Shown here one piece after another: positions 8,201 to 38,316 of a DNA stretch of 64,000 nucleotides. The stretch covers positions 63,942,964 through 64,006,963 of the forward strand of contig JARDVH010000031.1 in assembly GCA_030324005.1 (NCBI GenBank). Reading direction: 5' to 3'. The notes under the pieces are model-generated. The model had not been told where the DNA came from, made no database searches, and was given only the letters and a program-made list of their open reading frames with translations. Position numbers and translations under genes: made by a program. This stretch comes from Negaprion brevirostris (taxonomy: Eukaryota). How positions within the stretch are numbered: the stretch's first letter is position 1; each line of letters begins with the position of its first letter.

Positions 8201-8734
8201 GCCAGTATTTGTGAACTTAAATTAAAGTTCTACCTGTCAGAACTGTACTTGAGGCCTCAGTGTAAAATCTTGTCTGAAAACCGTACTTCGTCATGCTGTA
8301 GGAAATTATTGGGACCTCTGTTAATTTAGTGTTCAAATTTCTACTGTTGCCTGCTTTATAAGATTGTTGCACTTGTGGAGATTTTCTTTTCATCTGAACT
8401 TAATTACGATACACCAACATACAGCTGTTCTGTTTAGAATAGGAGCTAATAAGTTTATTAGATATAGTAATTCACTATTGAAGCATAATATAAAAAAAGC
8501 AACATGAATGGAAGCTGTAAATGCATAAAACATGTTTTTCCTCTTCAGTAAACAAAGCATATTGTGCGTAAGAATTATGAATGCAAGAAAGCACAGCGCT
8601 AGAAATAGGTTTCTCCTTTTGTACCTTGAGATTTTTATTAACACCATGTGCTATACCATTTTATATTAGCTCTGGGATTCTGTTTATTAAAGCTTTTTAA
8701 TTTGGTGTGGTGAGTTAGATATTTCTTGAGCTAT

Positions 8735-9080
8735 AAGAAAAACCATAAGAGATGGGCAGAAGTAGGCCATTTGGCCCACTGAGTCTGCTCCACTACTCAG
8801 TGAGATCATAGCTGATATATAATCCTCAACTCCCCTATCCTGCCTTATCCTTATAACCCTAGATTCCCTTACTGATTAAAAATCTGTCTATCCCAGCCTC
8901 TTCTGTGTTAAAGAATCCCATAGATTCTGTACCCTCTTGAGTGAATAAATTCTTCCTCATCTGTTGTAAATGGCTGACCCTTATTCTAAGATTGTCCTCT
9001 GGTCCTAGGCTCTCCATAAGAAAAAACACCCTTTCAATAGCTACCCTGTCAACCTTCTCGAGAATCCTATATGTTTCAAA
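8735..9080 (-). mobile_element. CR1 LINE 3' fragment
   Basis: Reverse-complement tail 'cataagagat…gcagaagtaggccatttggccc'; minus-strand ORF …FETYRILEKVDRVAIERVF…. Confidence 0.7.
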
Positions 9081-10422: not shown

Positions 10423-10551
10423 GTAATTTCCCCAGCTGCTTTGTTCTTGGCTGCAAAAGTAGAGGAACAGCCTCGTAAACTTGAGCATGTCATAAAGGTG
10501 GTACATGCCTGCTTGAATCCTCAAGAACAGCCACTAGATGTTAAGAGTGAT
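10423..10551 (+). CDS. CCNT2: Cyclin T2 exon 3 (129 nt)
   Basis: [43 protein letters not shown] (cyclin box LAAKVEE); cag acceptor, gtaagt donor. Confidence 0.97.
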
Positions 10552-10864
10552 GTAAGTTGTAAATAATATAGCAAAGTGACATTTTGGTTAAACATAAGCC
10601 TTTTTCATTAAAAATCCGATGTTTTAAGTGTTATTTGATCTGCATTTTTTATTTTGTAAGTTAAAAATAGCTTTGCTAATAATTTTGAGTACAAATTGCC
10701 ATAGCTATCATTTAATGAACTCTAGCACTAACTTTGCAAAACCAACTATTTTCGCTACTTGTGCAGAAGTGAATTTGGCGGATAATATTTACAAGGGGTG
10801 AGATTGGCTTGCTTTGGATTCCACTGTATAAATTAGTTCCTAATACATATTCTTTAAACTGCAG

Positions 10865-10925
10865 GCATATCTTCAACAGGCCCAAGACCTGGTCATACTT
10901 GAAAGTATAATACTGCAAACCTTGG
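10865..10925 (+). CDS. CCNT2: Cyclin T2 exon 4 (61 nt)
   Basis: AYLQQAQDLVILESIILQTL(G); cag acceptor, gtaagt donor. Confidence 0.96.
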
Positions 10926-11634
10926 GTAAGTTGGAATAAGGACTCGATTACAGTAACATACCATGTTTTGAAGAGAAAAGCGTTGATTTCACTGGTGCTA
11001 GGGTAATGTAGACTAATCTTTTGAAATGCTCTACGCCGTGCATACATTCTTAGTCTTTGAGTTTTGCATGTTGTTTCCTGTCTGCTAGCGTCCATTGCAA
11101 GTTAGATGTCATTCAATAATAGTTTCTGCACTGAGGCTTTTTTTGGTTCTTGGTTTGTTGATGACTCTTAAGAGTTGTGTTATTTTGCCCATCTATCCTT
11201 GCCCTCCAAGGGTGGTCACAATTTTTGTGACAGTGCTTCCATTGTGGTGTTGGAATTCAGAATTTGGCTCAGAGGATGAAAGAATGACATATCATCAAGT
11301 CAGGGTGATGTGTGATTTGAGGCCCTGACCTACAGCTGTTGTGCTTGTCGATGGAGGGTCAATGAGCTTGTTGCTGTCATAGTAAGTTCTTGTAGGGCAT
11401 ATATTGTCAACGTGGGAATTTTGGTATTTTTTTCCTGTGGTCTTGCAGATTAAATTATTTGTTTCATTCCCAACATGTTTAATTATCCTTGGTTAACTTT
11501 TCAGAACCTAATGAATGACTTTGAAACTAAAGCATAAATACTTCAGTGTTTAGTTTTAAGGGATGTGTCAGGAAACTAAAGCTTTTTGCCATCAGAATAG
11601 GAATTGTCAATAATATAGAGGTGGAGGAAATTGG

Positions 11635-11740
11635 GTACTGGAAAACTCAGCAGGTCTGACTGCATCTGCAAAGAAGTCATGTTTAACACACTTTTGTCTC
11701 TAGAGATGCAGACAGACCTGGGTTTTTCCAGCATCTGTAG
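11635..11740. repeat. Short palindromic repeat element (same family as 39836-40040)
   Basis: 'ctggaaaactcagcaggtctgactgcatct' … 'agatgcagacagacctgggtttttccag', imperfect inverted arms. Confidence 0.6.
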
Positions 11741-12961
11741 TTTTTAGCTTTTATTACAGGATTGGGAAGAAATTTATTGTTCTGTTGGTAGCAAAATTTT
11801 GCAGCAGTGTTCACTTAACGGGAGGTGAAATAATGTACTGTTCTACGCCAAGAGTGTCAGACCATGCAGCACACTATTCTGGTGAAGTACAGTTGTTTAC
11901 TGATCTATTTAATTATTTCATTAGGGCCACTTAATTTAATTAGTGACCCTTAAATCAACTAGAAGGAAATTTGAAAATTTACAGATACTTGTAATTTTCT
12001 TGTTGCAAGTTGGAAGATATCAGCATGAATTGGAAATTATGTTTTTTCCTTTATTATTTCCGGCACTTAAAAGAGCCTTCATCTCTCTCTCCTTTTCTTA
12101 ATTTCTTCTTTGTTTTTGATATTGTTGCTGGGAAGACAATCTTCAGTTGGAAACTGCACCTCTGGATATAGCCTTGTTTGCTTCCAACCCTTCACACTGT
12201 CTTGCCTTCCATCAAGCTTATTGCAACCTGCACTATTTACTGGGGAAATTTCACAGTAACTTCGTTGAAGTGTTAATGTAAGCCTTACTTGTGACTAAAA
12301 CTTTTTTTAACTGTGATTAGCCCCTAAACCTACCACCCCATTTCAATATGGGCTTCCTTTTGGAAGTTCAGATTCACATATTGCAAGACACTGCTTCCCA
12401 TCCCAATTTCTTCTGACAGTNNNNNNNNNNNNNNNNNNNNNNNNNNNNNNNNNNNNNNNNNNNNNNNNNNNNNNNNNNNNNNNNNNNNNNNNNNNNNNNN
12501 NNNNNNNNNNNNNNNNNNNNNNNNNNNNNNNNNNNNNNNNNNNNNNNNNNNNNNNNNNNNNNNNNNNNNNNNNNNNNNNNNNNNNNNNNNNNNNNNNNNN
12601 NNNNNNNNNNNNNNNNNNNNNNNNNNNNNNNNNNNNNNNNNNNNNNNNNNNNNNNNNNNNNNNNNNNNNNNNNNNNNNNNNNNNNNNNNNNNNNNNNNNN
12701 NNNNNNNNNNNNNNNNNNNNNNNNNNNNNNNNNNNNNNNNNNNNNNNNNNNNNNNNNNNNNNNNNNNNNNNNNNNNNNNNNNNNNNNNNNNNNNNNNNNN
12801 NNNNNNNNNNNNNNNNNNNNNNNNNNNNNNNNNNNNNNNNNNNNAGATGAAAGATACTGGCTGTCACTGTATTACTGTGAAAACTCTATTGTCTCTGCTC
12901 ACTTTCTTCCTTCACACTATTCGTTCTGGTACTTTTCATTTCAGTACACTTCATTTATTTC

Positions 12962-13988
12962 CACATCTATTTCAGACTACTGATGAGCTTGTTGCCAGAG
13001 AAGCCCAACTCCTCCTATTTTCTGGATCATTCAGTTTCGAAATTTGCAAGTACTGCCCTAGTTCCAGTAAAGTGGTTCTGCTCGACTGGCTTCAAACATT
13101 TAAGGATCCTTCTGAGTGACAGATGCCTGCATTGTCGTCTATGCGCAACTTCTGGGCTTGGAAAGTTTGTTCCAAGCTCTGCACAGGGAATGAGCTTCCT
13201 TTTATTTTTCTGTACTATTCTGTCAAAAACATTGACTTTTCTGGCCAGCCTGTGCTGACCACCAACCAGTAATTTCCCAAGTTGCCATTATTTACAGAAT
13301 TTCTAGCTGTTCTATTTCATTGTCTGGGCTACGACTCAAGTTTCTTGCCCATTGATTATCCAAAGGTAATTTTTATTACAAGTAGTAGCTAGGAGTCTAT
13401 CTAATCAGAGCATTAAGGCCAATTGTGTAATAGGAAGGCATCAGTCTTCAGCCATTCTACTGGAAACATCGTTGGTTCATCTGGAATTGAAAGCGCATCT
13501 GTTGTCAGTTGCAAAGGTGTCAGTGTCAACTTAAAAACCACACTACTTTTGCTGACCGGAAAGCATTTTGCAGGTCAGTAAATAACTGCACAATGTACGC
13601 AGATGAGTGTCCGCTTCTCCTGGTGCTTCCACAAAGTCTGTTTATTTTAAGACAGTCATATTCCCAGCATTGCAGCCTCAGATAGCAAAGTCTCATGGTA
13701 CTTTCTGACAGATCAAAGCCAATCATTTCAGTAATGGCTGATGACATCCTAGTTTATCTGAAAGCACACCATACAAAGGCTCTTGTCAGAAGAATAATTT
13801 GGGCACAATGTCAGTGCACTGCTGGTGTTTGGAGAAGTCTTGAGGGTGTCCTACATAGATCCTAGCTAGTGTTGTGGATTTTGGCTGTTGGTTACCCAAC
13901 TTTCCATGAAAAAGAGAACTTACCCTGATCGCTTGGAGGAGTTGGGCTTCTCTGGCAACAAGCTCATCAGTAGTCTGAAATAGATGTG
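12962..13988. repeat. Perfect 54-bp inverted repeat pair (12962-13015 / 13935-13988)
   Basis: cacatctatttcagactactgatgagcttgttgccagagaagcccaactcctcc and its exact reverse complement. Confidence 0.9.
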
Positions 13989-14149
13989 AGAAATAACCTG
14001 TTCTTGGTTGCAAGAGTTATGCCCAGCTTTGCACTTCTCTCAGCATCAACATCTGATTAATACACCTAACTAAACCCTGGCACTCTTCCAAAAGTAAATA
14101 TGTTAGGATTAATAGATCTTGATCTCTAGTTCATCTGAATTTTTTAAAC

Positions 14150-14745
14150 TTCATTTACTGGACATAGACATTGCTAGCTAGGCCAGCATTTATTGCTCAT
14201 CCTTAATTGCACTTAAGGTGATGGTGAGCTGCAGTGCTGTGTTGTAGGTACACCCAAAGTGTGGTTGGAGAGGGAATTCCAGGATCTTGACCCAGCAACA
14301 GTGAAGAAATGGCAATACATTTCCAAATCAGAATAATGTGTGAGGGGCTTGGAGGGGGTCGTCTTGGTGGTGGTGTTCCTATGTGTCTGCTACCCATGTC
14401 CAAGGTGGTAACAGTCATGTGTTTGGATGGTGCTGCTTAAGGAGCCTTGGTGAGTTTCTGCAATGATTCTTGAAAATGCTATGCACTGCTGTCACTTCGT
14501 CAGTGGTGGAGGGAGGAAATGTTTGTGAGTGGGGAGCCAGAGGGATGATATTGAGTTTTTTGTGGCGAAGTGGAGCTGCACTCATCCAGGAAATGGACAG
14601 CATTGTCAGACGACAGGCTTTGGGGAGTCGGGAGTTGTTAGGCACTGCAGGATGCCAAGTGCCTGACCTGCTTTTATAGCCACAGAATTTATATGACAAT
14701 TTCACTTTCTGGTCAGTGGTACTCCCCCAGGATGTTGGTAGCACT
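14150..14745 (-). mobile_element. Old LINE 3' fragment (L2/CR1 clade)
   Basis: 'gccagcatttattgctcatccttaattg…ggtgagctg' terminus shared with the copy at 34435-35290. Confidence 0.55.
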
Positions 14746-15377
14746 TGATGAAAGCAAGTTGCAAGACTTCGAACAGATTTTTTTAAATGGTTTTTGATGC
14801 TTCACCTGGTGTGTCTTACTATGATATTTCTGCCTGGTGGACTCTTCATCCTTCCAATGATGCACATTTGCCTGTCATATTTTTCATTGGGATATGTGTA
14901 TCTCTTTTGAGATTGGAATTTTATTGCTCATCATTAGCTGTCGTTGAGTAGGTAGTGGTGGACTACCTTCTGCAATGGTGAAGATAGTCCCTCTGTTGTT
15001 ACATGGCTGTATCATCCATGAGCGCTGTTTGGGGAAGCTGGGCAGAAAGGTTAGTGTTCAGTGGCTTTGATTGAGAGTGCCGTTTTGTTACAAGACTGAA
15101 GTGCACAAGCAAGACTCATGTAACATTGCCGATTTATAAAATCATGCTGCTTTCATTTATGCAGTACATTCTTACCAGAGACCAACTTGCTCTGCTTTTT
15201 AAAATGAGCTTTAATTTCCTTTAATTATAAAAGTTTAATTTTAATCATACTGTTTTAGTTGTCTGCTGTTTGAGGTCTAGTGGTTTTTATCCCTTACCTC
15301 TTAAAAGTATATAAATTCCTATTGTAATACTGCTTTATAAATGAATTGGAATTAATTGAATTGGTTTAACTTTGCAG

Positions 15378-15440
15378 GTTTTGAGATTACTATAGAACAC
15401 CCTCATACTGATGTGGTGAAATGTACCCAGTTAGTGAGAG
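15378..15440 (+). CDS. CCNT2: Cyclin T2 exon 5 (63 nt)
   Basis: (G)FEITIEHPHTDVVKCTQLVR; cag acceptor, gtgagt donor. Confidence 0.97.
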
Positions 15441-15601
15441 GTGAGTTTTCCATATTTAATAGTAAATATACATTGGTCAGTGAAGTTCTGTGTTCAGTGA
15501 ATAATTACTATGCTCACTAAGTTTAGTGAATTATATCCAAAGATATTAAACTGTTGTCCTTAGTTTTTCCTTTGGCTAATTCTGTTTTATTTTTATTGCA
15601 G

Positions 15602-15647
15602 CAAGCAAGGATTTGGCACAGACATCCTATTTCATGGCTACCAACAG
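15602..15647 (+). CDS. CCNT2: Cyclin T2 exon 6 (46 nt)
   Basis: (A)SKDLAQTSYFMATN(S); cag acceptor, weak donor AG|GTTGTT. Confidence 0.95.
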
Positions 15648-15790
15648 GTTGTTATCCTGACCCTCTTTGTTGCAGTTTCAGGCACACTATTGCTTCCCTT
15701 ACTGCAGGGCCCCCTAACAAGTGTCTCAAGCCCTTGTTGCAACAGAGAAATGTCCTTTCATCTGCAATGATGGTATCTCTCTGTTTGCAG

Positions 15791-15971
15791 TGCGGTGTAC
15801 TGTACAAGGGTATTTTGGGCACTAAGGGGTTAAATGCACAATGAGAAGTGTAGTGGTGCTCTCTGGTTACATTAACTCGATTCTGAGTGCATAACTCTAA
15901 AAATTGGTAGCCTGAATAGCAACTAAAGATTACAAAGAGATAAACTTAACCTAGAATTCACAAGCATCATG
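15791..15971 (+). other. Candidate poison (PTC-containing) cassette exon in CCNT2 intron 6
   Basis: Acceptor ctctctgtttgcag|, donor ATG|GTAAGT; in-frame TAA at 15831-15833 when joined to exon 6. Confidence 0.5.
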
Positions 15972-17051
15972 GTAAGTATGAAAGCATTTAACATTTTTAC
16001 ACTTCTCGTTGAATTGCAAAATTTAATTTTTCCAAAATTAATTTGATTTTTGCTAACAACATTTTGATGTTTTCAGATTTAAACTTTGCAGCACGTTTTA
16101 AGAACTGCAAGTTGTTGGGTTGTACTTCCAGTTGCAATGGAAATTATTCAGTGACCTCCTGAAACTAACTGGAGGTACCAAATGTGGGTAATAGAAAAGT
16201 TGATATCGCAGGTTCTGCTGAATAAATTTATTCAAGTACAATAATTAGGTTTTCATGAGTAGTGCAGAAAACATTTTAGTTAACTTAATTAACAAATTGA
16301 AATTAGTGTTAATATCAATATCACTAATTAGCTACTCATTGATAGTTACACCTTGTATAACTTATTGTAAAATTGCCTAAAATATAGTTCGGAAACTGGG
16401 GGGGATGGATGTAGAAACTAGAACAGATCATATATTTTGGTGGTGTTTGGCGGGTCTGGATTTTATGCAAACCCGCATGCAAAAAAAGTATAAATAACCA
16501 ATGCACATTTTTTAAAATTAAAATGACATCCATGTTGACTTAATCTCTGAACTTGCAAAAATATTTGACTGTAACAATTTTCCTTACCAGATAGCTGTTC
16601 TAAATTTCAGTGGTGATTCAGGAATTGGCACCTTCTTTGCCAAGGAAAACTTGTTAAAGATCATGAACATTGCTACTAAGAATAATATAATTTATCACCA
16701 CTGATAAATATTGAGTTGTTCGTGACTAGATTTTTTGCCTTGTAAAAGGGGCATCTTAAAACTTGAACGACCTAGTAAGGAACATGGTGGATACTAGCTT
16801 GACATGAATTTTTCATTAAGCCAATGTACAATGGTATATATACTACCTCCATTAGGCGTATATTTGCAACATGTTTGGCCATACTCAATCTGGAGAAAAC
16901 CCATTTTCAGCTTTGTGCTGGAAGTGTGACCCACCTTCTGCAGATATTGATGTCTGTCTTTTCACTCAACAACTAAAAAGCTTCCTTTTTTTTTGTCTCC
17001 TTTTGTATTTTTTTTCCATGATCCGTCGATCATCAATATGCTCCACTACAG

Positions 17052-17215
17052 TTTGCACCTGACAACATTTTGCTTGCAATACAAGCCTACCGTGATAGCA
17101 TGCGTGTGTATTCATCTGGCTTGCAAGTGGTCCAACTGGGAGATACCTGTATCCACAGATGGCAAACATTGGTGGGAATATGTGGATCCATCTGTAACTC
17201 TGGAATTACTTGATG
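17052..17215 (+). CDS. CCNT2: Cyclin T2 exon 7 (164 nt)
   Basis: [54 protein letters not shown]; cag acceptor, gttagt donor. Confidence 0.98.
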
Positions 17216-17484
17216 GTTAGTTGTAAATTTACAGATGAAGTAAGATTTGTAGTCTTTGTTTTGGTAATACAGGGCTATGTAGTGAAACAGGATAATATTT
17301 ATGCACTAGAGCTGTGTAGTAAACTAATTTTGTGCTGTGTTGTAGCGAGTGCTGTATTATCATTGACCTTGATACACATTGGGTGGGACTTTACGGCCTC
17401 GCTTGCCCCTAGACTGGAAAATCCTGCCCAAGGTCAACGGACCTTTCCGTTGTCTGCCCCTTGTCCATGCCGATTCCTTTGGTG

Positions 17485-17625
17485 ATGTGGATATGCTGGC
17501 GTTGGACTGGGGTAAACACAGTAAAAAGTCTGACAACACCAGGTTTAAGTCCAACGTATCAAATAAATCAACTATTAAATAAATCGGTTGGACTTAAACC
17601 TGGTGTTGTCAGACTTTTTACTGTG
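17485..17625. mobile_element. Short palindromic insertion with 39-bp perfect arms and a 12-bp target-site duplication
   Basis: Arms 17517-17555 and 17587-17625 are exact reverse complements; attcctttggtg at 17473-17484 and 17626-17637. Confidence 0.85.
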
Positions 17626-18196
17626 ATTCCTTTGGTGGGCAGGGCAGTAGAATTCCAGCGTATATCTGTCTCTTCCCACCCTAATCATGCTGAACAATGG
17701 TGAGGAAGATCAGTAATTTGTGTTAACAGAATGATTTGGGAAGGTCTTCAGGCAGTAAAGCACTGAAACTATCTTAGTTTGTTTTTCTTTCAGAGAATGT
17801 AGAATATTTTGTACAGAAAACGATTCTGAAAAATTGTTTCTCCAAATTATGCATTTTATTTTTCTGCCTTTCCACATGGGTGAAATTGAAAAAGCAAACT
17901 TGGGGAATATTTTCCAGGATTGTACTAATCACATTGTTGTCTAAGAATAGTATGGTACCATTGTAACTGTCTCCTACTAGAAATTCCAAAAGGATTTGAT
18001 AATTGAAAACAAACCTACAAAATGGGACAAGTTGAAGTTCTTTTCAAAATTAGTCTCCCAAAAAAATTGGATTCTGTTACTGGTATAATATTGTATCCTC
18101 ATTTAAAACATTGCTAAAAAATGCAGTGGTATGTCTAAGTTCCTGTTTAGCACCAAATTCTTGGACCTGGAAACTCTTAAAATTGTGAACGTTGTG

Positions 18197-18600
18197 TAGA
18201 ATCCCTACAGTGCAAGAGGAGGCCATTTGGCCCATCAAGCCTGCACTGACAACAATCCCACCCAGTCTCCATCCCTGCAACCCCACAAATTTACCCTGTT
18301 AATCCCCCTGATACTAAAGGCAATTTAGCATGGCCAGTAAACCTAACCATTACATCTTTGGACTACAGGCGGAAACTGGAACACCCAGAAGAAATCCACG
18401 CAGATACGGGTCCTCTGGTTTTCTCCCACGCTTCAAAGATGTGCAGGTTACGTTGTTTGGCCATGCTAAATTCCCTTTAGTGTCAGGGGGATTAGCAGGG
18501 AAAATTTGTGGGGTTGCAGGGATGGAGCCTGGGTGGGATTGTTGCTGCAGGTTCGATGGGCTGAATAATCTCCCCCTGAACTGTCAGGATTCCATGGACT
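18197..18600. mobile_element. Fold-back pair of HE1/V-SINE 3' halves (minus then plus)
   Basis: V-SINE body 'ccaaagatgt…ggccatgctaaatt…ttagtgtc' present in both orientations, joined near 18405. Confidence 0.8.
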
Positions 18601-18754
18601 AGTTAATAAAAGAATTCCAGCAAGAATTGTATTCAACATAACTTTTAAGAAAATGATTATGGTAAGTTTTTAGTAAGTGTATTTCAAAGAATATATGAAT
18701 GGTTGCCAGAATTATTTTCCATGACTTGACCTTTATTTTAAATTTTATTTGCAG

Positions 18755-18825
18755 AGTTAACACACGAATTTCTGCAAATACTCGAGAAAACTCCAAGCAG
18801 ATTGAAGAGGATACGAAACTGGCGG
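18755..18825 (+). CDS. CCNT2: Cyclin T2 exon 8 (71 nt)
   Basis: (E)[23 protein letters not shown]; cag acceptor, gtaaag donor. Confidence 0.97.
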
Positions 18826-18940
18826 GTAAAGCTTTTGGTTTTCAATGTTGATTTAAGTTGTCTTATTTTTTATTGTTACTGTAACAATGAAAAATGAAAA
18901 AGAAGTGTATTAGCTTCATTTCTGTTTCTTTCCTTTACAG

Positions 18941-20383
18941 GCTAACCAAGCTGCAAAGAAACCAAAAATAGATGGCCAGATAGCTGATAATGTTCTTCCT
19001 GGTTCATCTGGGCCCCATGAATCTACGTGTTCTATTGGTGGTGATCCTGGTTCAAGTGCAAATTTTCCTAAATCAAATTCCACAACTGTCCTACCTGCAT
19101 CCTTGAACTCTGGTAGTATTTCAATTCCAGTGCACGTCCCTGAAATGATGGCTACTACATCATTCAGTTCTACCTCCCAACAAGAGTGGCCTCAGCATCC
19201 ACACCAGAGCATGGAGCAAGTTCAGTCCCACAAACAAGATCTATCCATATCTGTCAACAAAAATGATATGATCTGCATTCAGCAGTCAACCTCTGGACAG
19301 TTAACTCAAAGCCATCATCGATCTGAAAAAGGTTCAGGACATTCGTCCAGTAAACATGAACATCTTAAATCTGGTAATGGCAAACATCATGGATTCCCTC
19401 TTCCATCTGTTCCAGCTCCTCAAAAATTAGCTTTGGACAGATATAGAGAGAAATTTGCTGCGGAACTTGCAGTACAGAAACGCAAATTAGAAACATTGGA
19501 GTCTGATGTGAAAGAACAATATGCCTCTGCTGCACAAGCCCTGGTAGAACAACAGAAGAAGCGTGTGCCAGCACAGCAGCAAATTCAGCATAATAGTAAT
19601 GCTGTGACTTCACCAATTAAAATGAAAATCCCAATTTCATCTGAAAAATCAGAGAGGCATGCAGCAGATAAGAAGGAAAAGGGTTTGCTTAAATTAAGGA
19701 TACCCATCCCACCCACAGAAAAGGCTTCTAAAGATGAGCTGAAAATGAAAATTAAAGTTCCCTCCTCTGAAAGACATAGCTCCTCTGATGAGGGCAGTGG
19801 TAAGAGTAAGCACACAAGTCCACACGCAGGCAAGGAACACAAGGAGAAACGCAAGGACCATTCTTCTCACCATCATCACCATAGTAGCAGCCATAAGTAT
19901 TCGCATAGCAGCAGCAGTAGTGGGAGTAGTAGACACGGTATTGATGGATCGAAAGGAGGAACTTTGCGGAGTCCCGTAGGTCTGAGCGGTGATGGCAGTT
20001 CCACTGGCTCCAGCTCTTCACGCAAGAGGGCGCACGCCAGTGATACCTCTCACAACCACCATCCCAAAATGAGCAAAACCTCCAAGACTGCAGGTACTTC
20101 ATCTAGCTCTTCTTCCTCTTCCTCTTCTTCTTCCTCCTCTGTGAAGCAGTATATATACCCTTACAACTTAATTCTTAACCTTCCCTCCTCCCCTCCTCCC
20201 ACTGTCACATACCAGGTGGGCTATGGACAACTCAGCACCCTCATGAAACTGGATAGGAAACCTACAGAGGCCAACGGTCACAACGCCAATCCAGAATACA
20301 ATGCAAACAGCCAGCACATGGACTACAAAGATACTTACGATATGCTGGAGTCACTCTTAAGTGCTCAAGGAGTGAACATGTAG
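18941..20383 (+). CDS. CCNT2: Cyclin T2 last coding exon (T2b-type C-terminus; coiled coil, His-rich and Ser-rich regions)
   Basis: ANQAAKKPKIDG…SPIKMKIP…LKLRIPIPP…ELKMKIKV…ERHSSSDEGSGKSKH…HHHHH…MDYKDTYDMLESLLSAQGVNM*. The C-terminus is diagnostic for CCNT2 rather than CCNT1. Exons total 2214 nt (737 aa). Confidence 0.97.
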   Translation, partial: ANQAAKKPKIDGQIADNVLPGSSGPHESTCSIGGDPGSSANFPKSNSTTVLPASLNSGSISIPVHVPEMMATTSFSSTSQQEWPQHPHQSMEQVQSHKQDLSISVNKNDMICIQQSTSGQLTQSHHRSEKGSGHSSSKHEHLKSGNGKHHGFPLPSVPAPQKLALDRYREKFAAELAVQKRKLETLESDVKEQYASAAQALVEQQKKRVPAQQQIQHNSNAVTSPIKMKIPISSEKSERHAADKKEKGLLKLRIPIPPTEKASKDELKMKIKVPSSERHSSSDEGSGKSKHTSPHAGKEHKEKRKDHSSHHHHHSSSHKYSHSSSSSGSSRHGIDGSKGGTLRSPVGLSGDGSSTGSSSSRKRAHASDTSHNHHPKMSKTSKTAGTSSSSSSSSSSSSSSVKQYIYPYNLILNLPSSPPPTVTYQVGYGQLSTLMKLDRKPTEANGHNANPEYNANSQHMDYKDTYDMLESLLSAQGVNM

Positions 20384-21737: not shown

Positions 21738-24406
21738 GCTGTGTCTTAAGCTTTGAAAAGCATTCTGAGCCTAATGCAGCGGTTAATGAAATATTAGCTT
21801 TTAAAAGAAGACTGCTGTTTAGCTACAAATTTTCTAATTTATACAATTGAAACATTTTATTATCTCAATCATCCATACTGCTTTGATTATTTCTAAACCA
21901 ACAATTCGGAATCTGTTAATCCTGCTCCTTAGACACTAGTATAAGCATAAGTGGTTTGGCTGGAACATTCCTTGTGTTTTCAAGTTTTATCACATTGTGT
22001 TTTGGTACTGAACCTTGTATCCCCCTTTCAATTTCAACTGCTTTGCTGTATATTTTTAATAATGGAATATTATCTGTTAACTGAATATTCCAGTTGTAAC
22101 TGATCAAGGATCATGTGTAATTTTCCAAATATAATACCTGCTGCAATTTTCATGACTCAAATTCGCCTTATTACCATATTTAATATGCACTATACTTTTG
22201 CAATACTGCGATCAAAGTGAGGAAATTTTACAAAGCTAACGGGTCAGCTCCTGCCCTACTTTACTGAGCAGCGGGCTCCAAGCCTACGCAAAATTAATGA
22301 TACTCAGGGCAATCGAATAAATGACAATATTGATCAATCGAACATAGCATGTGATGTGCAGATGAGTTTCTCAGGGCAGCAAAGAATTATCTGACAAGTC
22401 CTCCATGGTTTGCTCAAAGGCCTCCTTTGGAATTGCAATTTTTTTTTTCTTGAAGCAACCATTAAAGTACAGTATCTACCAAAACCTTCAACTTGGCTGA
22501 CATTGTTTGCTAATTGGTTCCTTTCATTAATAGAATGTCCTGATATGAACCACCTTGGATATGGCAGAATTTTTCATAGTAATAATTAAGAGTTAAAAAT
22601 GTTAACTGTTAACGTGGCAGAGAAAAGAACCAAGTTATACAGCAGCCTTCAAATTTGAGGTGATAAAAGTTGCTGAGAACCATAGAAGCAGCGATGTATG
22701 CATTATTATTCACATGCATTTAGAAGAGATTCTTGACTAGCTGCATTTAGATTTGTTTATACTGTGTAATGTGCACCCTAACATCTAGATAAACTTTTAG
22801 GGAAAAATGTGTATTCAGAAAATTAGCTGTATAAATTGTTCTAATTTCACAAACCATGTTGCAACAAGAATTTATTGTTACTTTTATCTTTATTTTCCTC
22901 CTTCCTATGAATATGTCTGTATGCTTTAGTCTGTGTTGATGTATTATATTTTCAGATAATCATGTATGGGCTTCAAAAACCTGGACAAACATGCAGAAAG
23001 GTTGTTACTGTTTTCAAACTAGAGTTATATTTGAACATTACTTTTTAAATTGTTTAATATTAAATCTTACTGGTTTTGCCCTATTTATAATAAACTTAAA
23101 CTTGCATTCAGGTATTCACTTAAAATAGACTTTTTCTTCCTGGTTAAGCCTGCAACTGATGCTTCCCAATATTCAAATGTGACCCAGCTTTCAAAGAAAA
23201 TATCTTTTAATGATGGAAAGTGTGAATATTATAGGTTTACCACCTAATCAAGAATACTAATGCAAATCTACAACCCACGGGATAGTTAAAATATAAATCC
23301 ATCACGTACAAATATCCACTCAAAGTAATAACAAAAAGATCTTTGTCACATGGGTGTCAATTTATTTGTGATTCAGTTGGGTAAAATCTTGCATTCACAG
23401 CAGTCTCAGCAATTCGCTTTGTTTCATTTTAAGTTTGTAGATTTTCTTTATGGCATCCAATTTAGATTATCTAATCTTCAAAGTTGATTCCTGTTTAGTT
23501 GTGAAGTAGGCAGTTGATACAACAGTCCAACTTCTAAATTTGCTGTTATACTGCATTTGGTTTATGTGCATCATTGTATAAGCCAATAATAAAACAAAAG
23601 CAAACAATTCTGCATTCATTCTGACGATGTTGATTTGTGTTGGTGGACATGTTTGTTCCAATGATCTATTGTGACATCAGAGCATTAGTGGTTAGTTAGG
23701 CTATCCATCTGTATCTGAGGCTGCAAGTTTATCTTTCCCCCGGTAGTCTTAAAGCACTTCCCCATAGTGTCTACTAGTATCCCAGAAAATACGTGGTTCA
23801 TGATGTTAGTACTTTGTGATCCTTGTTTTTTTCCAGATGTACAAAATATAGGTGACTGCCAATGCTAAAATGCCAGTAATTTCCAGATTATTTGTGAATT
23901 TTTACATATTGGGCATCACTGGGGCACTCTGTCTCATACTTATGTTACTGCACGGCAGCCCACTTGGCTGTATGGCGTGTCATTTAGAATATTTGCTGAA
24001 CTGCATGTTTTTTATTTAAGATTATATCTTTTATGTATAGCTTTTTGGATTCCTCCCCCTCCCAGGAGTTTAAAACGTAAAAATATACTGAATTCCTATC
24101 AGAACTTTGCGTTCGATCAGCAAAGCATTTCTGGAAAGAGCCAACAATATTTTCATAATAGCGGTCTTTGAAAACTATAGCATTAAAAGGAGTTGACTTC
24201 AGTGTGCCTGTGTCCTTGGAGGTGGACCTTATCAACACTGTTAGCATAAAATATAAGAAGTGCAGCCTTTGTGAAATGGTGGTTCCTGTGTGGTCACATC
24301 GGACCTNNNNNNNNNNNNNNNNNNNNNNNNNNNNNNNNNNNNNNNNNNNNNNNNNNNNNNNNNNNNNNNNNNNNNNNNNNNNNNNNNNNNNNNNNNNNNN
24401 NNNNNN

Positions 24407-24835
24407 CTGGTTTGGAGGGTAGATCTTATGAGGAAAGATTGAGGGAGCTGGGGCTTTTCCCTTTAGAGCGGAGGAGGATGAGAGGTGGCTTAATAGAAGT
24501 TTATAAGATGATGAAGGGGATAGAGTGGACGTGCAGAGACTATTTCCTCAGGTGGATATAGCTGTTACTAGGGGGCATAACTATAGATTTATAGTGGGAG
24601 ATATGGGAGGGATGTCTGAGGTAGATTCTTTACTCAGAGTGGTTGGGGTGTAGAATGTACTGCCTGTTGTGATAATGGAGTTGGACACTTTAGGAACTTT
24701 CAAGCGGTCATTGGATAGGTACATGAAGCACATCAGAATGATAGGGAGTGGTACAGCTTGATCTTGGGTTCAGACGTAGCTCGGCACATCGAGGGCCGAA
24801 GGGCCTCTACTGTGCTGTATTGTTCTAAGTTCTAT
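24407..24835 (+). mobile_element. CR1/HER1-type LINE 3' end
   Basis: [37 protein letters not shown] plus tail 'gggccgaagggcctctactgtgctgtattgttcta'. Confidence 0.8.
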
Positions 24836-25204
24836 TTGTGCATTTTATGTTGACTGCCCAACCCAGAAGAAGTCATGTTGAAAACCGAGAAAATGATTTT
24901 TCTATGAACAGTTGTTCAATCCAGACAATGAAACTCTTGCAATGGGCATTCTGGAGTCCATTGATGTAGATTTTGACCTGACTCCCAAATAAATGGTACT
25001 GCCAGTCATTTCATTCCTACAAATTAGACGGTAGAAAATTAACAATTCATTAATTGCAAGTAGTTAGCAATTCTCTCTAGGCTAATTACTGCATCACCTT
25101 CCCCATCTTTTTATCTGCACCAGCATCTAATGTGAAATACAAAAAAAAATTATGGTTATGTTTGTCTTTCCAATATTATCCAAAGTTTGCTGAAAAAAGT
25201 TTGA

Positions 25205-25530
25205 GGTGACAGTGGTCAGCACTGCTGCCTCACAGCGCCAGGAACCCAGGGTCATTTCCAGTCTTGGATGACTATGGATTTTGCACATACTGTGTTTGTG
25301 TGTTGTGTGGGTTTCCTCCAGGTGCTCCAGTTTCCTCCCGCCGTCCAAAGATGTGCAGACTAGCTGGATTGGCTGTGTTGTACTGTTCCTAGTATCCAAA
25401 GATATTGGGTTCGAGAGTTTTGTGAGGTGAAAGCATTGGGAGTAGGGTGAGCCTGGGTAAGATGCTCTTCCAGAGAATTGGCGCAGATTCGATGGGCAAA
25501 AAGGCTTCTTTCTGCACTGCAGGGATTCAG
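25205..25530 (+). mobile_element. tRNA-derived HE1/V-SINE
   Basis: Head 'cagtggtcagcactgctgcctcacagcgccagg', V-domain 'gggtttcctccaggtgctccagtttcctccc…tccaaagatgtgca', LINE-like tail. Confidence 0.85.
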
Positions 25531-25896
25531 TGACTTTCCCGGTTGTAAACTGGTCTTGTCCCAACAGTTGGTCTAATCTGGCTGGTTGCCCACCGTAAAG
25601 GGTGGGGTAATCTAGTTATTCCACTTGTGCTTTACATTTATATTGTTGAATAAATGGGCATGGACCAGTGCTGATAAATTTTGTTATAAAAGATTGCACT
25701 CTAAACAACTACAGAAGGCTCAAATTGAAATTTGCATCCATTAAATAACATTTGACAAATCAACCTTCACTGCCTGCTTTGTGGCATTAAATTGCTGAAA
25801 TTGAATCTGTCGTTCATAGAAACAGGTAGAATTTTGTGTGATAATCAAAATATTTCCTCTTTTTCATCCAAAACCTTGTATTATTTTCCTGTCCAG

Positions 25897-26094
25897 CCCT
25901 ACCCAGAAGACCCTGCAGTTTACAAACCACTTTCTCAAGAAGAGCTACAGAGAATAAAAAATGAAAAGAAACAAAAGCAGAATGAGCGAAAACAGAAAAT
26001 CTCAGAGAACCGCAAGCATCTGGCCAGTGTACGCGTTGTACAAAAGAATCTAGTCTTTGTGGTTGGTCTATCACAGCGGCTAGCAGATCCAGAG
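25897..26094 (+). CDS. CNOT4: CNOT4 (CCR4-NOT subunit 4, E3 ligase) exon: coiled coil and start of RRM (198 nt); isolated fragment
   Basis: PYPEDPAVYKPLSQEELQRIKNEKKQKQNERKQKISENRKHLASVRVVQKNLVFVVGLSQRLADPE matches human CNOT4 as I recall it; ttttcctgtccag acceptor, GAG|GTGAGC donor, phase 0/0. Confidence 0.93.
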
Positions 26095-26149
26095 GTGAGC
26101 AAAAGAAAGTCAGGGATTTCCATTGTACCATTCCTGACTTTTCAAAGGA

Positions 26150-26520
26150 AACCAAAGTGCTTTGCATTCCAGCAAGTAATGTTGAAGTTTATTCCCTATT
26201 GTAGCAAATAGAGGAACCAATTTGCTCTGTGATGTCTCAAACAATGTGATAATAATTTGAGGTGTTGGTTGGAGAATAAATTTTGGGCATGACACTGGAG
26301 AACTACTTTCTCTGTTTTGTCTACTACCTAATCTTTTGCATTTGCCTGAGGGTAGAAGGAGGCCTTAGGTTTAATATGCCAACCAAAAGACAGCGTCGTC
26401 ATCATCAACTTGGCTCTACAACAAGACTCTACTAAAGAGTGTCGTCCGAGATTGTGCTCTGGGACTTGGGGTCCATGACCTCCTTGCCCAAATGCTGATC
26501 CAGAGCTGAGTGCTTTCTCG
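26150..26520 (-). mobile_element. Deu-domain SINE remnant
   Basis: 'tgttggttggagaataaattttgggcatgacactggagaact…ttaggtttaatatgccaaccaaaagacagc…gggacttg…catgacctcc'; similar to 62550-63185. Confidence 0.5.
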
Positions 26521-28587
26521 GCATCCTCACCAGGCACCTCAAATACTAGCAACAGTAAAGCACCCTGTAATATGTTTACTTGTAATGTCATGCATTCCAA
26601 GGGGATGTGTGATGGGAGTGTGTTTTTAGGAAATATTTGTAATGGCATTTTGTGTTCCACTTTTAACTTTAGCTTTCTCCATCCTCTATCTATTTTGTCA
26701 AATTTTCTGACTACCCATATGCAGCAATTTAATTCTAGCCAGTAAGTCATTCAACACAAGCATTTAAACCTTTTGGCGAGGGCAGGGTTCTCTGGAGCAG
26801 ACTGATCCATAACTTGTTTGTGCCCCTTTTTAAAAATTATTTGTTTTAAAGAACTACGACGCTGCAACACATTCTGGAAATACGCTTTCCTGAATTGCAT
26901 CAATGCTCGTTGTGAAGTGAAGCAGTGCAGAAGGGCTTAAACACAATGTAAACTTGTCTCTGCAAAGTGGAATAAATGTCATGCTTGTCTGTTTTGCACT
27001 CATGTCAGGTTTTTAAGACCCAACACTTGTTGCTCCAAGCTGCTATTTACCAATTTTAATCGTCCTTTTTGAAAGGACTTCAATTTACTGTCAGAAATTG
27101 ATTTGTAAAAGTCACAATCTTGACTTGAAATGATGTCACCCTTCTAACTGGTGTCTGGATGCATGGCAGAATTATTGCTGTACTTGTAACATTTGGCTGA
27201 CATCAATTCCAAGTAACTTGTATATTTAAAAAAATGTATTTTCCAATGTAGCATCATATGACAAGATTTTATGCTTTAAGATTTGTGCTGTAACAAATAC
27301 AAATCAACATGGACTGAATATTGATTCGTCAACAGCTAAAGAATTAACCTACGGAAAAGGGATTTAGCATTGACAAAACGCAACCAAAAATCCCATGTCA
27401 CTCTTAACGATTGTGGAGACTGCTTTTTAAAAGAAACTCCAACTCCCAGTTAATAGCAGAAGGATGACACAAGATTTCACTTATTACGACTTTTACTGTA
27501 ATAAAAGACGAAGATGTGATTGACTAAAAAGTATCTTTATACACTATGTATTTTAAATCGCAAAATAGAATATTCCCTTTTAGTGCAACCAAAAACACAT
27601 TTCATTGATACGCTTTGCCCTCCAAGTGGACACTCAGCTTCTCCAGAACGAGTCTTCGGTGATTCTTGGTCTCGGATGGGGGGGTGGGTTTACTTATTTT
27701 GCTTTCTGGTCTTGAGAACTTTTAATGTTTTCACAGTGTCTTTCAGAGTAAGGCTTTACCCCCAAAGCTGTTTCCTTGAGCAGGAGTTTAGTGACGTTTC
27801 CAGCCTCATTTGAACTCTCTACAAATTTCAATCAAAGAACAAACTCCCACCTGCATTTCTGAAAATTGAAATGCAACATCCAACTGTTGTAATGGCAACC
27901 TGATTTGTCTGTGAAGTTTTGGGGGTACCTTCAAACCAGCCCCCTCAAAGCCCATCTCCATGGCAATGTAAATCATGTGGGTCTTGTATTCTGCTAAATA
28001 ATGCTATTTATCTTTGAGACCCAACTCTCCATTTTTGAAGAAAATGGGCAGTTTAAAGCAAACTATTTGCAACCTAAAATGCCCAATCCTTCAGGAATTG
28101 GGAGCCCTCAGTCTATTCACTATTAGCACATAGACTGTTGCCACTGTGTCCAAGCGTAAATGCATTGTTTCGTTTGGAAGAAGGTGCAATCTGGGCCCCC
28201 TTTTAATGTGTAAACAATCAAATCCAGGGTTGCTGTCAGCAAACTTTAGACAAGATAATGTAACCCTTTGATTTAACCCAAGTTTAAAGATAGAGATCCA
28301 ATATATGATTCTTTCAAAACTTAATGGTTATGACACAGCATTTATACATTTACGCTGTGCTCGTATTAAGTCTCGGGCTGCTACTGGCTTTAACCAGATC
28401 TCTTCACCCTACCTCATCAATGCGGATCCTCCAGTGTCCTGTAATCCCTTCACTCAAATAATCTGAGCGTAATCAAATAGACTTGCAGTAACAAGGCACT
28501 CCCTGGCGACTCCGAGGTCTTGAACTCTCCACAAGCCTCATTCCATGGACTAGGGAATCTGTCCACGTCAGTCTGCTTGGTAATTAA

Positions 28588-28850
28588 CCCAGTGGTCAGC
28601 ATTGCTGCCTCTCAGCACTTGCCTGGATTCAATTCTGGCCTTGGGTGGCTGTGTGGAGTTCTCCACATGTCTGTGTGGGTTTCCTCCCACAGTCCAAAGA
28701 TGTGTGGGTTAAATTGGCTATGCTGAATTGTCCCTTAGTGTCAGGGATATTAGCAGGGTACACAAGTGGGATTATGGAGCTAGGCCCTGGGTGGGATTGT
28801 TGTTGGTGCACTTAATAGCTGAATACCCTGTTTCTGTACTGTCGAGATTT
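28588..28850 (+). mobile_element. HE1/V-SINE
   Basis: 'cagtggtcagcattgctgcctctcagc…gggtttcctcccacagtccaaagatgtg…ttggctatgctgaattgtcccttagtgtc'. Confidence 0.8.
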
Positions 28851-29363
28851 GATGAAAAAGTCTTTTACTTCTGCCTGGCATTGCAGCACTCTTTGTGGGT
28901 TGTCTTCCCTCAAGTCTGTCTGTTTGAAAATCTGAGTGTCTGTGCTCAAGAAGACCAGCTAATGCTTCCAGTGTATCCAGGTGCAGCTTCCTTGCAGAGG
29001 TTTTGACCTGGACCCTGTCCCATGGCAGCAAAGCAACCTGGTTTTATCTCCATGCAAATGTTGTAGAAGATCATATTTGCCTTTCCAAACGTCTCCATTT
29101 TAACTTAAACTGCCTCCTTCAATTCAACAGATAACTGTCTTATAAAGTCCTCCACAAAGAAAATGGGTGATACTTTGTTGCTGCCCTAATTAGTATCATT
29201 AGCAATGGCCAAAACCTTGAACTTGTCTGTGCAATTCATTTTATCTCTTCCAAAGCATTAAGTAGTTTTGTTTTTTCTGAACTGATTAATGCCTGGTTAA
29301 GCTTGTGCTGGCTTAGAATTTAAGTGACTGAAAAACACCAGTTGAACTCTTTCTTTCTTTCAG

Positions 29364-29450
29364 GTTTTAAAACGGCCAGAATATTTTGGGAAGTTTGGTA
29401 AAATACATAAAGTTGTCATCAACAACAGCACATCATATGCAGGTTCACAG
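29364..29450 (+). CDS. CNOT4: CNOT4 next exon, RRM part (87 nt); isolated fragment
   Basis: VLKRPEYFGKFGKIHKVVINNSTSYAGSQ; tttctttctttcag acceptor, CAG|GTAATG donor; directly continues the 25897-26094 exon in frame. Confidence 0.93.
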
Positions 29451-31479
29451 GTAATGTTGCACCAGTTAACAGTTTCTTTGTTTTTCTCCCTCCATTTGCT
29501 TGCCGCTTCTCTTTGTCTGACAGGAATGCTGGAGTGGATTTATGGTACTGGCGCAATTTTTTTTGACTTGACAGTGAACTTGCATTGTGCTTTCAAATGT
29601 AGTGTTGTCTTCTGGCATCAAACCATGCACCTCTGGCATAACATCTGACTGGCTACCTGTTGTACACAGTTTAGTAGGAATTGAGGATTCCATGCATGAT
29701 CTACTTTAATCCCCAAACTGTTGGGGATACTGGATCAAGAATGTGTTGTTGTGCCTTTTAAAAAATGTGTTTGATCATATGTTTATATGTCAAAACAGTT
29801 CAAGCTGAGATGTTTTGTGATTATAAAGGAAAATGTTGTCACATAGTATGAATGTTTAACATAACTGGCCATCTGAGTAGGTGAGATGTTTCTGGCTTCA
29901 CCACGGGATGATTTATCTGGGAGCCATTAAATAAAGGTCCATCAATTGACTAGTCCCCCTCAATGCAGTTGGTAATCTGAAGCCTCATGTAGCCTGATTC
30001 TATCAGTGCTTAAAAGATATGTGATCAGAATGTGAGGGTCTTAGAATTGCTTTCGTACCAATTGGCTGCGTGCATTGCAATGTGTGGAAACTCAATCTGA
30101 GCATTTGTAACAGCGGTTTCTGTTGCCATAATTTCTTTCAATGCCATTTTGTCCCGTGGTCAACCGTAAATGAACCACGAAGCAGGCAGTTCACTTATTT
30201 CAAGATCTAGTTATACAAATCATTAAATTGTTCTAGCAAATAAACAATAGGCTCTATTTGTAGCCTGCAAGAGGTAAGTTTGGCAGTATGACACATGCAT
30301 TTTTTAACTAAATTTTCACTAAAGTCTCTAACCATTTGGAATAGTATGCCCATAGCTTAACATGTTCTCATTCTGCAGACATTAAGTCAGCATCTACATT
30401 CTTAGAAATAATGGGCCTGATTTGCCCTTGCAAATGCATTGAATTGATTAGACTTTGCAGGTAGAAACTGAGCTCAGTTGTATGGTGCTTTCTTTGTAGA
30501 TGTATGCATGAGCTTAAAATATCTCCAAAATATCAGGTGATGTAGGTTCTGCACAGTTCTGCTTTGCTTCATGCTACAAATGAACAGTTCTGTGCAGTTC
30601 CACATTTGAATGTTTCTCCATGTAATTAAGTTACTGATGCATGTTTCCTACAGCAATTTTTAACGCTCCCTCATTTTAATTCCAGCAACTAAAGTGAGAG
30701 ATCTTTGAGATGCTTATTTTTGCCAAAAATTTATTTTGGCAAAAGGTTCACAAGCAACCATTTTTTGTTCCAATTAGCCAGGCTTGGCACATCATTATTT
30801 TCAGTGAAAAAACACCAACAAAGCTGTCTTTGTACATGTATGATCAGTATGACTTGCTATTGCTTGGTACATGAACACAGTGCACCATTTTCCATTGTCA
30901 ACTACTTTTGGTTGGATACAACAAATGGATAAGAATGGGCCTAAACCTAATTCAATGTAAAATTGATTCAGATATTCTATAAATTCCAAATAAGATACAG
31001 ATATGGTTTTGCAATAATGGTACCTTACTGGTAGAATTGGAATATTTTTCTCATCGGGGACCTCACTTTGGTGAATTTGTGAATGTGATTTTTAATTTTG
31101 TATCACAATTGGTTACTTCAGCCCTAATTGTCACTTAAAATAATTCACCAATTACTTGCCTTGTCAAAAACTCAGCTGCCTATTTTGAAAATGTGCATTA
31201 AATTCTGAAATACTTAAATTGATATGGAAATATTGATAGGTTTGAACGTCCAAAATTTGTAGAAAAATCTAATGACATAAGTATCATGATAAATTTGTCA
31301 ATTTAGCAATTTTGCATTTGTTCGTATTAATACATGAATCAGTATGTTGTTAACTGGGTAATAACACCAATGTTATTCTGGAAAAAAACAAGCAGTTTTA
31401 AATTGAATAAAATTGGACATGTGTAAAATTCTTCCCAATCTTGTTCAATAACTGCATAGATGGCTTAATTGTTAAAAGA

Positions 31480-32290
31480 AAACATAAGCACAGAAGTAGG
31501 CCATTTGGCCCACTGATTCTGCTCTGCCATTCAGTGAGATCATACAATCTAAAACAATCCTCACCTTTTTCCTGCCTCACTACCATAAACCTAATTTCCT
31601 TACTGATTTTAAAAAACCTGACCATCTCAGGCGTGAACATTTTAATGACACTACCTCTACAGCCTTCAGTAGTAAAGAAAAATCCACATTCGTTACCTTC
31701 TGGGATAAGTTGTTCATCTTAAAATGGGTGACTTCTTACCCTGAGATTGTCCTGTGGCCCTACACACTCCCACAAAGGGAAATAACCTCTCAGCATCTAC
31801 CCTATAATGCCCCCTGAAAATCCTATGTCTAAATATGGCTGTTTCTCATTCCAACTCCAACGAGTACAGGCCCAACCTACTCTACCACATAAGAAAATCC
31901 CTCCTAACCAGGACAAACTTAGTGAACCTTTGGATTGCCTCCAAAGCCAGGACATGCTTCCTTAAATAAGGTGACCAAATTGTTCACAGTATTACCGGTC
32001 TAGTACCTTGCATAGTTTTAGCAAGACTTCCTTATTCTTATAGTCCATTCCCTTTTGAAATAAAGGCCAACATTCCATTTGCCTTCCCTATTTGCTGACC
32101 TTGCATGTTAGCTTTGTGTGGTTTATACTCAATGACACCCAAATCCCCCTGTGCTGCAGCTTTCTGCAGTCTTTCTCCGTTTAAATAATATTCAGCTTTT
32201 ATTCTTACTACCAAAGTGCACAACTCCACATTTTTCTGCATATTCCATCTGCTGTTTTTGCCCACTCAACCCGTCTATATTCCTCTAGAT
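31480..32290 (-). mobile_element. CR1 LINE 3' fragment
   Basis: Reverse tail at 31480 and minus-strand ORF …YYLNGERLQKAAAQGDLGV…GKANGMLAFISKG. Confidence 0.8.
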
Positions 32291-34434
32291 TGTCATACCC
32301 ACTTCTTGCCTTCCCAGAAATCATTTTTTTGTTTCTTTAGTTTCATAATGTGCAACAAGGCAGATGTGATTGCTGCCTTCAGTGCTGCTGGGCAGTCTTT
32401 GGGAACAGGGAGGGGGGAATATTGCAATGAAGAGCCATTAAAAGATAAAAACCATTTATGGAGGGGCATTAAGTCAAAGATAGGAATAGCAAAAANNNNN
32501 NNNNNAGCAAAAAAGATAAGGATGGAGCTGACTGCATGTATGCTATTTCTAGGATTTTCAATGCTGTATGCAGAGAAAAGTGGCAAATATTTTCATTAGT
32601 TATGTTCACTTGATTTCCAATTTAAGAATCTTGCCTTTCACCACGTTTTAAACTGATTTCCATGCATGACTGCAAATAAATCATTTTGTAAAATACCCAA
32701 TGATTGTAATGTTGTATTGGCAATAATATAAGCAGAGGTTTGGGTGGCAAATAACCACTTAAGTTTCTTGTGTAGTTTAATACACTTGCTTACTGTGAAA
32801 TTCAAAAATCTTGGTTTCATTCTTAGAATTTAAGTTTTGATAGACGATATAGGTCTGAAATGTCATTTATATGCCTTGATCAGAATTGCACAGTGAGCAA
32901 ATCATTAACCATCCATTAAATGGCCAACAATGGTTTGAAAATGAGGATGATGCAGTGATGGAGGATAGAATTTGCAAATAGTAATGCTGGACTGTGCAGA
33001 CCAAATGGGTAGAAACAAGTGGTATAATTAGAAGCAGGAGGAAAGTTCTAGTTTATTCTGTCAAGAATGCCATTAATCTCAGTATAATTATCATTATTCT
33101 TGGATGCATTTTTAAAAAGTAATTTGACGAGTTGGATTCACTTTTCGACATACTGAGAGAAGTTCTGAATTAAATGAAATTTATGTCACAACTATATGAT
33201 AATTAGATTTCAAGTTGTTTTTTGTCATGGCTAACTGAGTGGACTGCATCCCCCTTCAGTCACCCTGAGGCACCATCTGGAAGTGGGTGGGTTTTGTTTC
33301 ATTACTCTCCCTAATCAAATCATTGGGAATTACTTTGGGTGTGCAAAATCTCTCGTACTAATTACCTTCTGAGAAACTTATGACCTGAAATTGTATCATA
33401 GACTTAATGGATTTGGAAGAACTTAATAAACTTATTTCTACAGTGTCAATATTAAATATGTTAATCCATCACACACAAATCATTTTTAAGGAGATATCTG
33501 TTGTGCTCAAATAATTGCTACTTTTCAAATTAACAATAGATGGGGATGTTTGGCGACATCAAGGCATAGTCATAAGTGGCATGCAAAATAAGTTGCATAA
33601 ATTGTGGGTGCATTCCAATCTCTAGTTGAATAAACATGCAGTTTTTACCTCTACAGCTCTGAAAATTAACATTTGATATCTATCGGAGATTGGATTGCCA
33701 ATTCTTTTAACGTTTAGTTTTTTTGCTAATGTATAGCCAGGACATTGATTATTGATAGTTTTTGATTTGTTAACATTCTTATTATCCTAATAAGACCATA
33801 TCAAAATTTTAAGCTCAGAAATCTTAGCCAGCTAGTTAACTTGCATTTGTTATTTTTTCTAAATTATTAAATGGCTCAACAGTTAGAAGCATAGGCATGT
33901 AATGTCAGGGAATACAGTTTATTTGTACCTGTCCTACAAACAACAAAAACAAAGTGCTGGATGGCAGCGTCTTTGGAAAGAAACCAGTGTTAAAGTGTCA
34001 AACCTAAATGGCGCTTTTACAGACTGTTTATTTGCACCTAGCAAGGTTCTACCAACAAAAGTAGTGATGACCACTTATTCACATACTGCTGCATTGAAAT
34101 CCCACCCTAGCTCAAGTCCCTGCAATGGAATATTCTGACCGAGAAAAGATTGCTACCATTGAAACATGCTAACACATCAGTAGCTACTTAAAGTTCTTGA
34201 TGTTTTGCTTGAGTGCAGCAAGAAGATGCTGCAATTGAAATTGGCACTGATTAGAGCAAGTAAAGCAAGGTCCCAAATAGCCTGCCAAGAATTTGTCCGC
34301 TCATTTGGCCAAGCAGTGGAAGTTAAGCGGAGTCTGCCATCTTGGATAATCTTGTGCTTTCTTAGGAGGTAGTTGTGGGAACGATGATGGTTGGAAAAAG
34401 AATTCTGTAAATTCTGCTATTCATGTCCCATCTT

Positions 34435-35290: not shown

Positions 35291-35299
35291 TGACCTCCA

Positions 35300-38245: not shown

Positions 38246-38316
38246 ATATTTTTTTCTCTGCCCCCAGCAAAACATACTGCCTGAAGAGCCCTGATGGATG
38301 TGTTGGATTATATTTA

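Follow-up and report, generated by a model that had tools for sequence, protein, structure and literature searches.

The two CNOT4 exons found between CCNT2 and MAP3K19 in the window (the whole stretch of 64,000 nucleotides that was analyzed, G000:C31:63942964-64006963 of a 2.69-Gb assembly) very probably sit on a misplaced 5.3-kb piece of the ordinary CNOT4 gene, derived from a chimeric contig in a fragmented assembly and likely placed there by the larger MAP3K19 part of that contig. The exons most likely belong in a 5378-N gap of the CNOT4 gene on another scaffold (C73), so that their stray position is most likely an ordinary assembly error and not new biology. The block between CCNT2 and MAP3K19 is very probably not a real feature and would have no biological significance as one. 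The coordinates of all features are compiled in Table 1.

Table 1. Features of the window and of the CNOT4 locus on scaffold C73 (positions are those of the window unless a scaffold is named).
Feature	Position	Strand	Remarks
CCNT2 coding exons, complete	712..20383	+	tblastn with shark cyclin T2 P0243
100-N gap	24307..24406		left edge of the misplaced block
Misplaced CNOT4 piece (very probable)	24407..29752	+	5346 bp; right edge from X1, X2 and X5 contigs
3' piece of high-copy LINE-like repeat	24407..24837	+	at contig start
CNOT4 exon	25897-26094	+	198 nt, phase 0/0, residues 59-124
CNOT4 exon, part of RRM	29364-29450	+	87 nt, phase 0/0, residues 125-153
Gap-free join of CNOT4 intron and CCNT2-MAP3K19 intergenic DNA	29752..29753		likely chimeric
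DNA right of the join	29753..32495		likely native CCNT2-MAP3K19 intergenic DNA
Old LINE piece	about 31480-32316		nearest copies 70-78% identical
10-N gap	32496..32505		flanks overlapping by 8 bases; real contiguity
MAP3K19 last coding exon	36993-36846	-	anchors contig 32506-38561 at the locus
5378-N gap	G000:C73:56828882-56834259		intron lacking residues 59-153

Identity of the CNOT4 exons

Both exons are bordered by AG acceptors and GT donors, and together they encode residues 59-153 of CNOT4 from the shark Scyliorhinus canicula (P0068) with no letter changed. This segment was identical in 107 of the 114 CNOT4 rows of at least 400 aa, and the same exons, identical and starting at residue 59, were recovered in all of the cartilaginous-fish rows (17/17) and human rows (2/2) that were tested. 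The window exons also matched solved CNOT4/NOT4 chains, PDB 1e4u and 2cpi being amongst the closest known entries for CNOT4. Sequence identity and exon borders both agree with residues 59-153, as expected of a CNOT4 orthologue. Compared with vertebrate CNOT4 (CCR4-NOT subunit 4, a RING E3 ligase with an RRM), the two exons are identical over residues 59-153 and, together with the C73 exons, give a gene that runs on in exon order and phase; the difference lies in the placement in the assembly only, with no sign of a second or decayed copy.

An earlier, sequence-only reading of this DNA had described two exons of 198 and 87 nt with intact splice sites, a 3.3-kb intron between them and no residue differing from human CNOT4, and each of these observations was reproduced here. 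That reading had also found neither the RING exon nor the downstream exon in the window, in line with our search, in which no further CNOT4 exon was found within it. It had also argued that the intron excludes a retrocopy, and the retention of a 3269-bp intron with GT-AG ends speaks against a processed retrocopy.

The piece is single-copy in the assembly, its inner repeats matching elsewhere at no more than 90%. Across the 2.69 Gb, the 198-nt exon matched at one place, the window itself (4/4 candidates scored), and no close second copy of the intron between the two exons, or of the junction region described below, was found in the assembly.

The CNOT4 locus on scaffold C73

The search of the genome with P0068 returned 10 matches, eight of which lie in order on C73 and two in the window. 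Those on C73 span residues 1-58 and 154-638, apart from small stretches lost in gaps; those in the window span residues 59-153. The RING exon had one match in the genome, at C73:56827595. Its last residue is 58, the phase at this border is 0 and GT follows; the next CNOT4 exon on C73 is preceded by AG and starts at residue 154, also in phase 0. As both of these borders are in phase 0, the window exons fit between them seamlessly (58/59 and 153/154). Four gaps, of 5378, 10, 100 and 87 N, lie between the two C73 exons. Upstream of the RING exon, at a distance of 66-170 kb, C73 also carries matches of the NUP205 family; in human, NUP205 is a neighbour of CNOT4.

The sequence-only reading had listed misassembly amongst its options and had proposed a search of the main locus as the check. 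The outcome supports that option, as the locus on C73 lacks exactly residues 59-153, the piece present in the window, and has a gap there.

The foreign piece, at 5346 bp, is 32 bp shorter than the 5378-N gap. The other sized gaps of more than 100 N in the 264 kb examined, which holds 82 gaps in all, included none within 500 of 5346 (0/30), and the rough log-normal chance of such a length match was 0.001 within 32 bases and 0.003 within 100, for a comparison that was chosen after both numbers had been seen. Counting against a mis-join, none of the contigs and reads seen connects the block with either side of the C73 gap, and no overlap of the block ends with the flanks of the C73 gap was detected by blastn at word size 7 or by local alignment. 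The last 16 bases of the left C73 flank gave a 15/16 match to a copy of the LINE in the block, at an E value of 0.085 that is too weak to use.

N runs may in principle represent withheld stretches and not assembly gaps, which is a caveat on the mis-join reading.

A probable join hidden within a gap-free contig

The contigs of four public runs (X1, X2, X5 and X6) were aligned to window positions 29500-34600. X1 shared the most with the sequence (0.94 of words, at a word depth of about 6) and is possibly the source data of the assembly; X2 and X5 are from relatives. None of the 24 runs listed for the sequence was an RNA run. Record 1 of X1, record 9 of X2 and record 17 of X5 all cease to fit the window at 29753, with 24, 5841 and 2407 non-fitting letters beyond that point, respectively. 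Over the part that fits, the X1 record showed 0 differences from the window over 2166 bases, and the contigs of the relatives showed 60 (X2) and 52 (X5) over 2.1 kb. None of the X1, X2 and X5 records extends past the left end of the aligned stretch, and the letters that they carry left of 29753 would represent the flank of CCNT2. For X6, no long contig over 29753-31880 was present among the records listed, which counts against a mis-join. The records listed, being only part of the whole, also show no long contig over 29500-29752 and are therefore uninformative for that interval. The evidence from contigs only is thus that three of the four runs break at 29753 and that the fourth has no listed contig there.

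These results revise the extent of the block, which the sequence-only reading had carried on to 32495; judged by the run contigs, the CNOT4-derived part ends at about 29752. The piece so delimited contains the two exons and the start of the next intron, preceded by what would be the final stretch of the intron that follows the RING exon (24407-25896).

Only one copy of the junction region is present in the assembly, and positions 29480-30100 are unique sequence. No gap, repeat or clear microhomology that would account for the join was found there, which counts against a mis-join. The GC content was 39.0% in the masked block, 39.3% and 39.1% in the C73 flanks and 45% in a third C73 piece, compared with 34.1% in the CCNT2 flank and 34.4% to the right of the join. 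The best GC change point lies at 30942 and not at 29753, though the average GC values agree with the model. Searches for unplaced contigs carrying the true continuation gave none (1/1 candidate for the junction; 40 candidates in each of the other searches).

Gaps and repeats around the block

The 100-N gap on the left abuts a LINE, as had been noted from the sequence, and no gap size is more common here than 100 N, with 24 of the 82 gaps examined. The LINE-like piece that follows has 39 other copies among 40 scored candidates, at 86-90% identity. The 10-N gap on the right had been described as having shared sequence on both sides, which corresponds to the overlap of its flanks (Table 1), and this had been read as a hint of contiguity with the MAP3K19 side. 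The contiguity is borne out, since record 16 of X2 spans the gap without a break, from 32172 to 34600, ruling out a mis-join at that position; however, it has no bearing on CNOT4, because the break sits 2.7 kb further left, at 29752/29753, inside a gap-free contig.

The old LINE near the right end of the contig was also considered as the site of a repeat-driven mis-join, which is unlikely given how far its nearest copies have diverged (Table 1). Records 9 and 16 of X2 end within this LINE from opposite sides, and among the records listed none bridges its portion at 31918-32172. It is thus the window's own contig, together with the two X2 records ending in the same LINE, that ties 29753-31882 to the MAP3K19 side.

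Probable origin of the misplaced piece

The likely sequence of events would begin with a low-depth contig joined chimerically at 29752/29753. At the word depth seen in X1, one chimeric fragment or one wrong contig join could fix a false junction. The resulting unit (24407-38561), which lies between two 100-N gaps, would consist of a CNOT4 part of 5.3 kb and a CCNT2-MAP3K19 part of 8.8 kb that includes a MAP3K19 exon, and would have been placed by its larger part. Such a placement would result in a default 100-N gap on the left side, with a hole of defined size remaining at the CNOT4 locus, and the animal itself would have a single, ordinary CNOT4 gene spliced in cis.

Behavior of this kind is known from reference-guided scaffolding with RagTag. 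The part of the RagTag paper used here states that a single primary alignment decides the place of each contig in the order and that gaps can be sized from the reference, with 100 N, the default for an unknown size, given if the inferred size is too small (PMC9753292). From a scaffolder acting in the way that this part describes, a hole of defined size on C73 and a gap of 100 N at 24307 would both be expected. However, the scaffolder used for the shark assembly may differ, and mate-pair scaffolding could also size a gap. In the excerpt of Rhie et al. 2021 drawn on here, short-read hummingbird assemblies contained about 5,000-8,000 mis-joins, chimeric joins included, and one gene was split across two scaffolds (PMC8081667). 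Like the short-read assemblies of that excerpt, the shark assembly is fragmented, with 96,185 contigs overall and with 82 gaps within the 264 kb examined; unlike the cases given in it, the misplaced shark piece can be matched by length to an empty slot. Literature on CNOT4 in sharks, judged by title and the start of the abstract, yielded nothing relevant.

Alternative explanations

If a CNOT4 fragment of 5.3 kb had really been inserted between CCNT2 and MAP3K19 in the sequenced animal, this event, a private or heterozygous duplication whose copies were collapsed by the assembler with the donor site left as a gap, would account for a gap-free join at 29752/29753, and a collapsed two-copy block would both break the contigs of the donor site and appear single-copy. 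We nevertheless consider it very unlikely: X1 carries 24 other letters left of 29753 and not the CNOT4 side, the break in the two relatives (X2 and X5) falls on the very base at which X1 breaks, and no second copy or variant junction was found in the assembly. Within the assembly a collapsed private duplication would look much alike, and it is the X1 contig that opposes it. The segmental duplication proposed by the sequence-only reading is not borne out, as the exons, like the unique parts of the intron, occur once in the assembly; a donor copy at the source locus, the mark of duplication or transduction, was not found, and a collapsed copy is possible there. It is conceivable, at a still lower probability that we would call remote, that the whole contig 24407-32495 is CNOT4 intron, mis-scaffolded at its two visible gaps, and that the break at 29753 reflects a large insertion difference between animals. 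The exons would then still be an assembly error, and both the stretch of LINE bridged by no listed contig (31918-32172) and the position of the GC change point away from 29753 are compatible with this account. Its 8089 bp are, however, incompatible with 5378 N, X2 spans the 10-N gap from 32172 on, and the break point is identical in X1, X2 and X5 and lies in unique sequence (29480-30100).

The single-copy state of the exons, the unchanged protein and the good splice sites would also be expected if the two internal exons had been moved to another chromosome by a fixed cut-and-paste event and the mRNA were completed by inter-chromosomal trans-splicing; moreover, if the gap sizes came from the genome of a relative, the 5378-N gap would be uninformative on the animal itself. 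A clean deletion should, however, assemble as continuous sequence and not as a contig break, the join at 29752/29753 is not seen in X1, and the DNA contigs give no support to a location of the exons on another chromosome. The exons are also kept in place in 17/17 of the cartilaginous-fish CNOT4 models tested. In mouse, loss of CNOT4 is lethal, homozygous Cnot4 knockouts dying at E10.5 according to the part of the source used here (PMC12111730), so that, as far as this part goes, a CNOT4 gene that had really been split is unlikely to be maintained. Altogether, these observations make such a move extremely improbable, and the misplaced piece of an ordinary CNOT4 gene is the reading retained below.

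Consequences for the use of the assembly

The misplaced CNOT4 piece serves as a warning that this assembly contains gap-free chimeric joins that are invisible from N runs. Where it shows orphan exons, odd neighbours or an apparent loss of exons, a comparison with the home locus and with independent contigs is therefore needed. Automatic annotation is likely to yield a CNOT4 model short of 95 residues in frame (285 nt), as well as a spurious CNOT4 fragment beside CCNT2.

Flanking genes and other cartilaginous fishes

The flanking genes had both been described as complete in the sequence-only reading. This holds for CCNT2, of which residues 1-654 of 654 were covered in the window by tblastn with P0243, but not for MAP3K19: of P0123, the shark protein closest to it, residues 1-179 had no match in the window, and residues 268-283 likewise had none there at E<=0.01. 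The MAP3K19 kinase exon was nearest to shark proteins, with 98% to the best.

The placement of CNOT4 relative to MAP3K19 was also compared amongst other cartilaginous fishes. The longest records of CNOT4 and MAP3K19 rows differed in length in 9/9 species, counting the species listed with both genes and omitting those with only one, and with the qualification that for multi-member clusters the record may belong to another species, which makes the comparison an indirect one. In Pristis, the record length is the same for CCNT2 and MAP3K19 and a different one for CNOT4.

Gaps on the scaffold carrying CNOT4

The coding exons of CNOT4 on C73, the scaffold that carries the main CNOT4 gene, are interrupted by two small gaps, and the assembled gene is therefore damaged at further sites as well (see table). 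Exact overlaps of 40, 27 and 29 bases were also found between the flanks of the 100-N gaps at C73 positions 56799263, 56918382 and 56949515; here overlapping contigs were placed next to one another with a default gap, giving small false duplications.

The final 16 bases (G000:C73:56828866-56828881) ahead of the 5378-N gap, the proposed home of the misplaced CNOT4 block, resemble the beginning of the LINE that sits at the left edge of that block, and match another copy of this LINE at 15 of 16 positions (E 0.085). These LINE-like bases may mark the contig break point.

Ends of CCNT2 and MAP3K19

Both known cyclin T2 ends, named T2a and T2b after database titles, are encoded at window 20095-20253 (see table, with the shark cyclin T2 protein P0243 as reference for the short tail). 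Right of the hidden join, the stretch 29753-31480 is unique and AT-rich, shows ~97% identity in two relatives, and contains an AATAAA at 31406. If it adjoins position 24306, this stretch may form the distal part of the CCNT2 3' UTR.

The last MAP3K19 exon lies 12 kb beyond the kinase exon in the window (sites 36846-36993 and 49048-49066). Amongst the shark MAP3K19 models, P0125, P0126, P0127, P0129 and P0131 include this exon; P0123, P0124 and P0130, which stop at the kinase exon or shortly beyond it, lack the last exon and are probably incomplete models or represent an alternative end.

Coordinates of the CNOT4 exon gaps (C73) and the cyclin T2 tails (window)
Feature	Position	Strand	Shark protein residues
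Small gaps in CNOT4 coding exons	G000:C73:56880385-56880394 and 56936707-56936736		near 523-529 and 608-617 of P0068 (Scyliorhinus canicula CNOT4)
Cyclin T2 short tail, spliced	20215-20253	+	642-654 of P0243
Cyclin T2 long tail, read-through	to 20383	+
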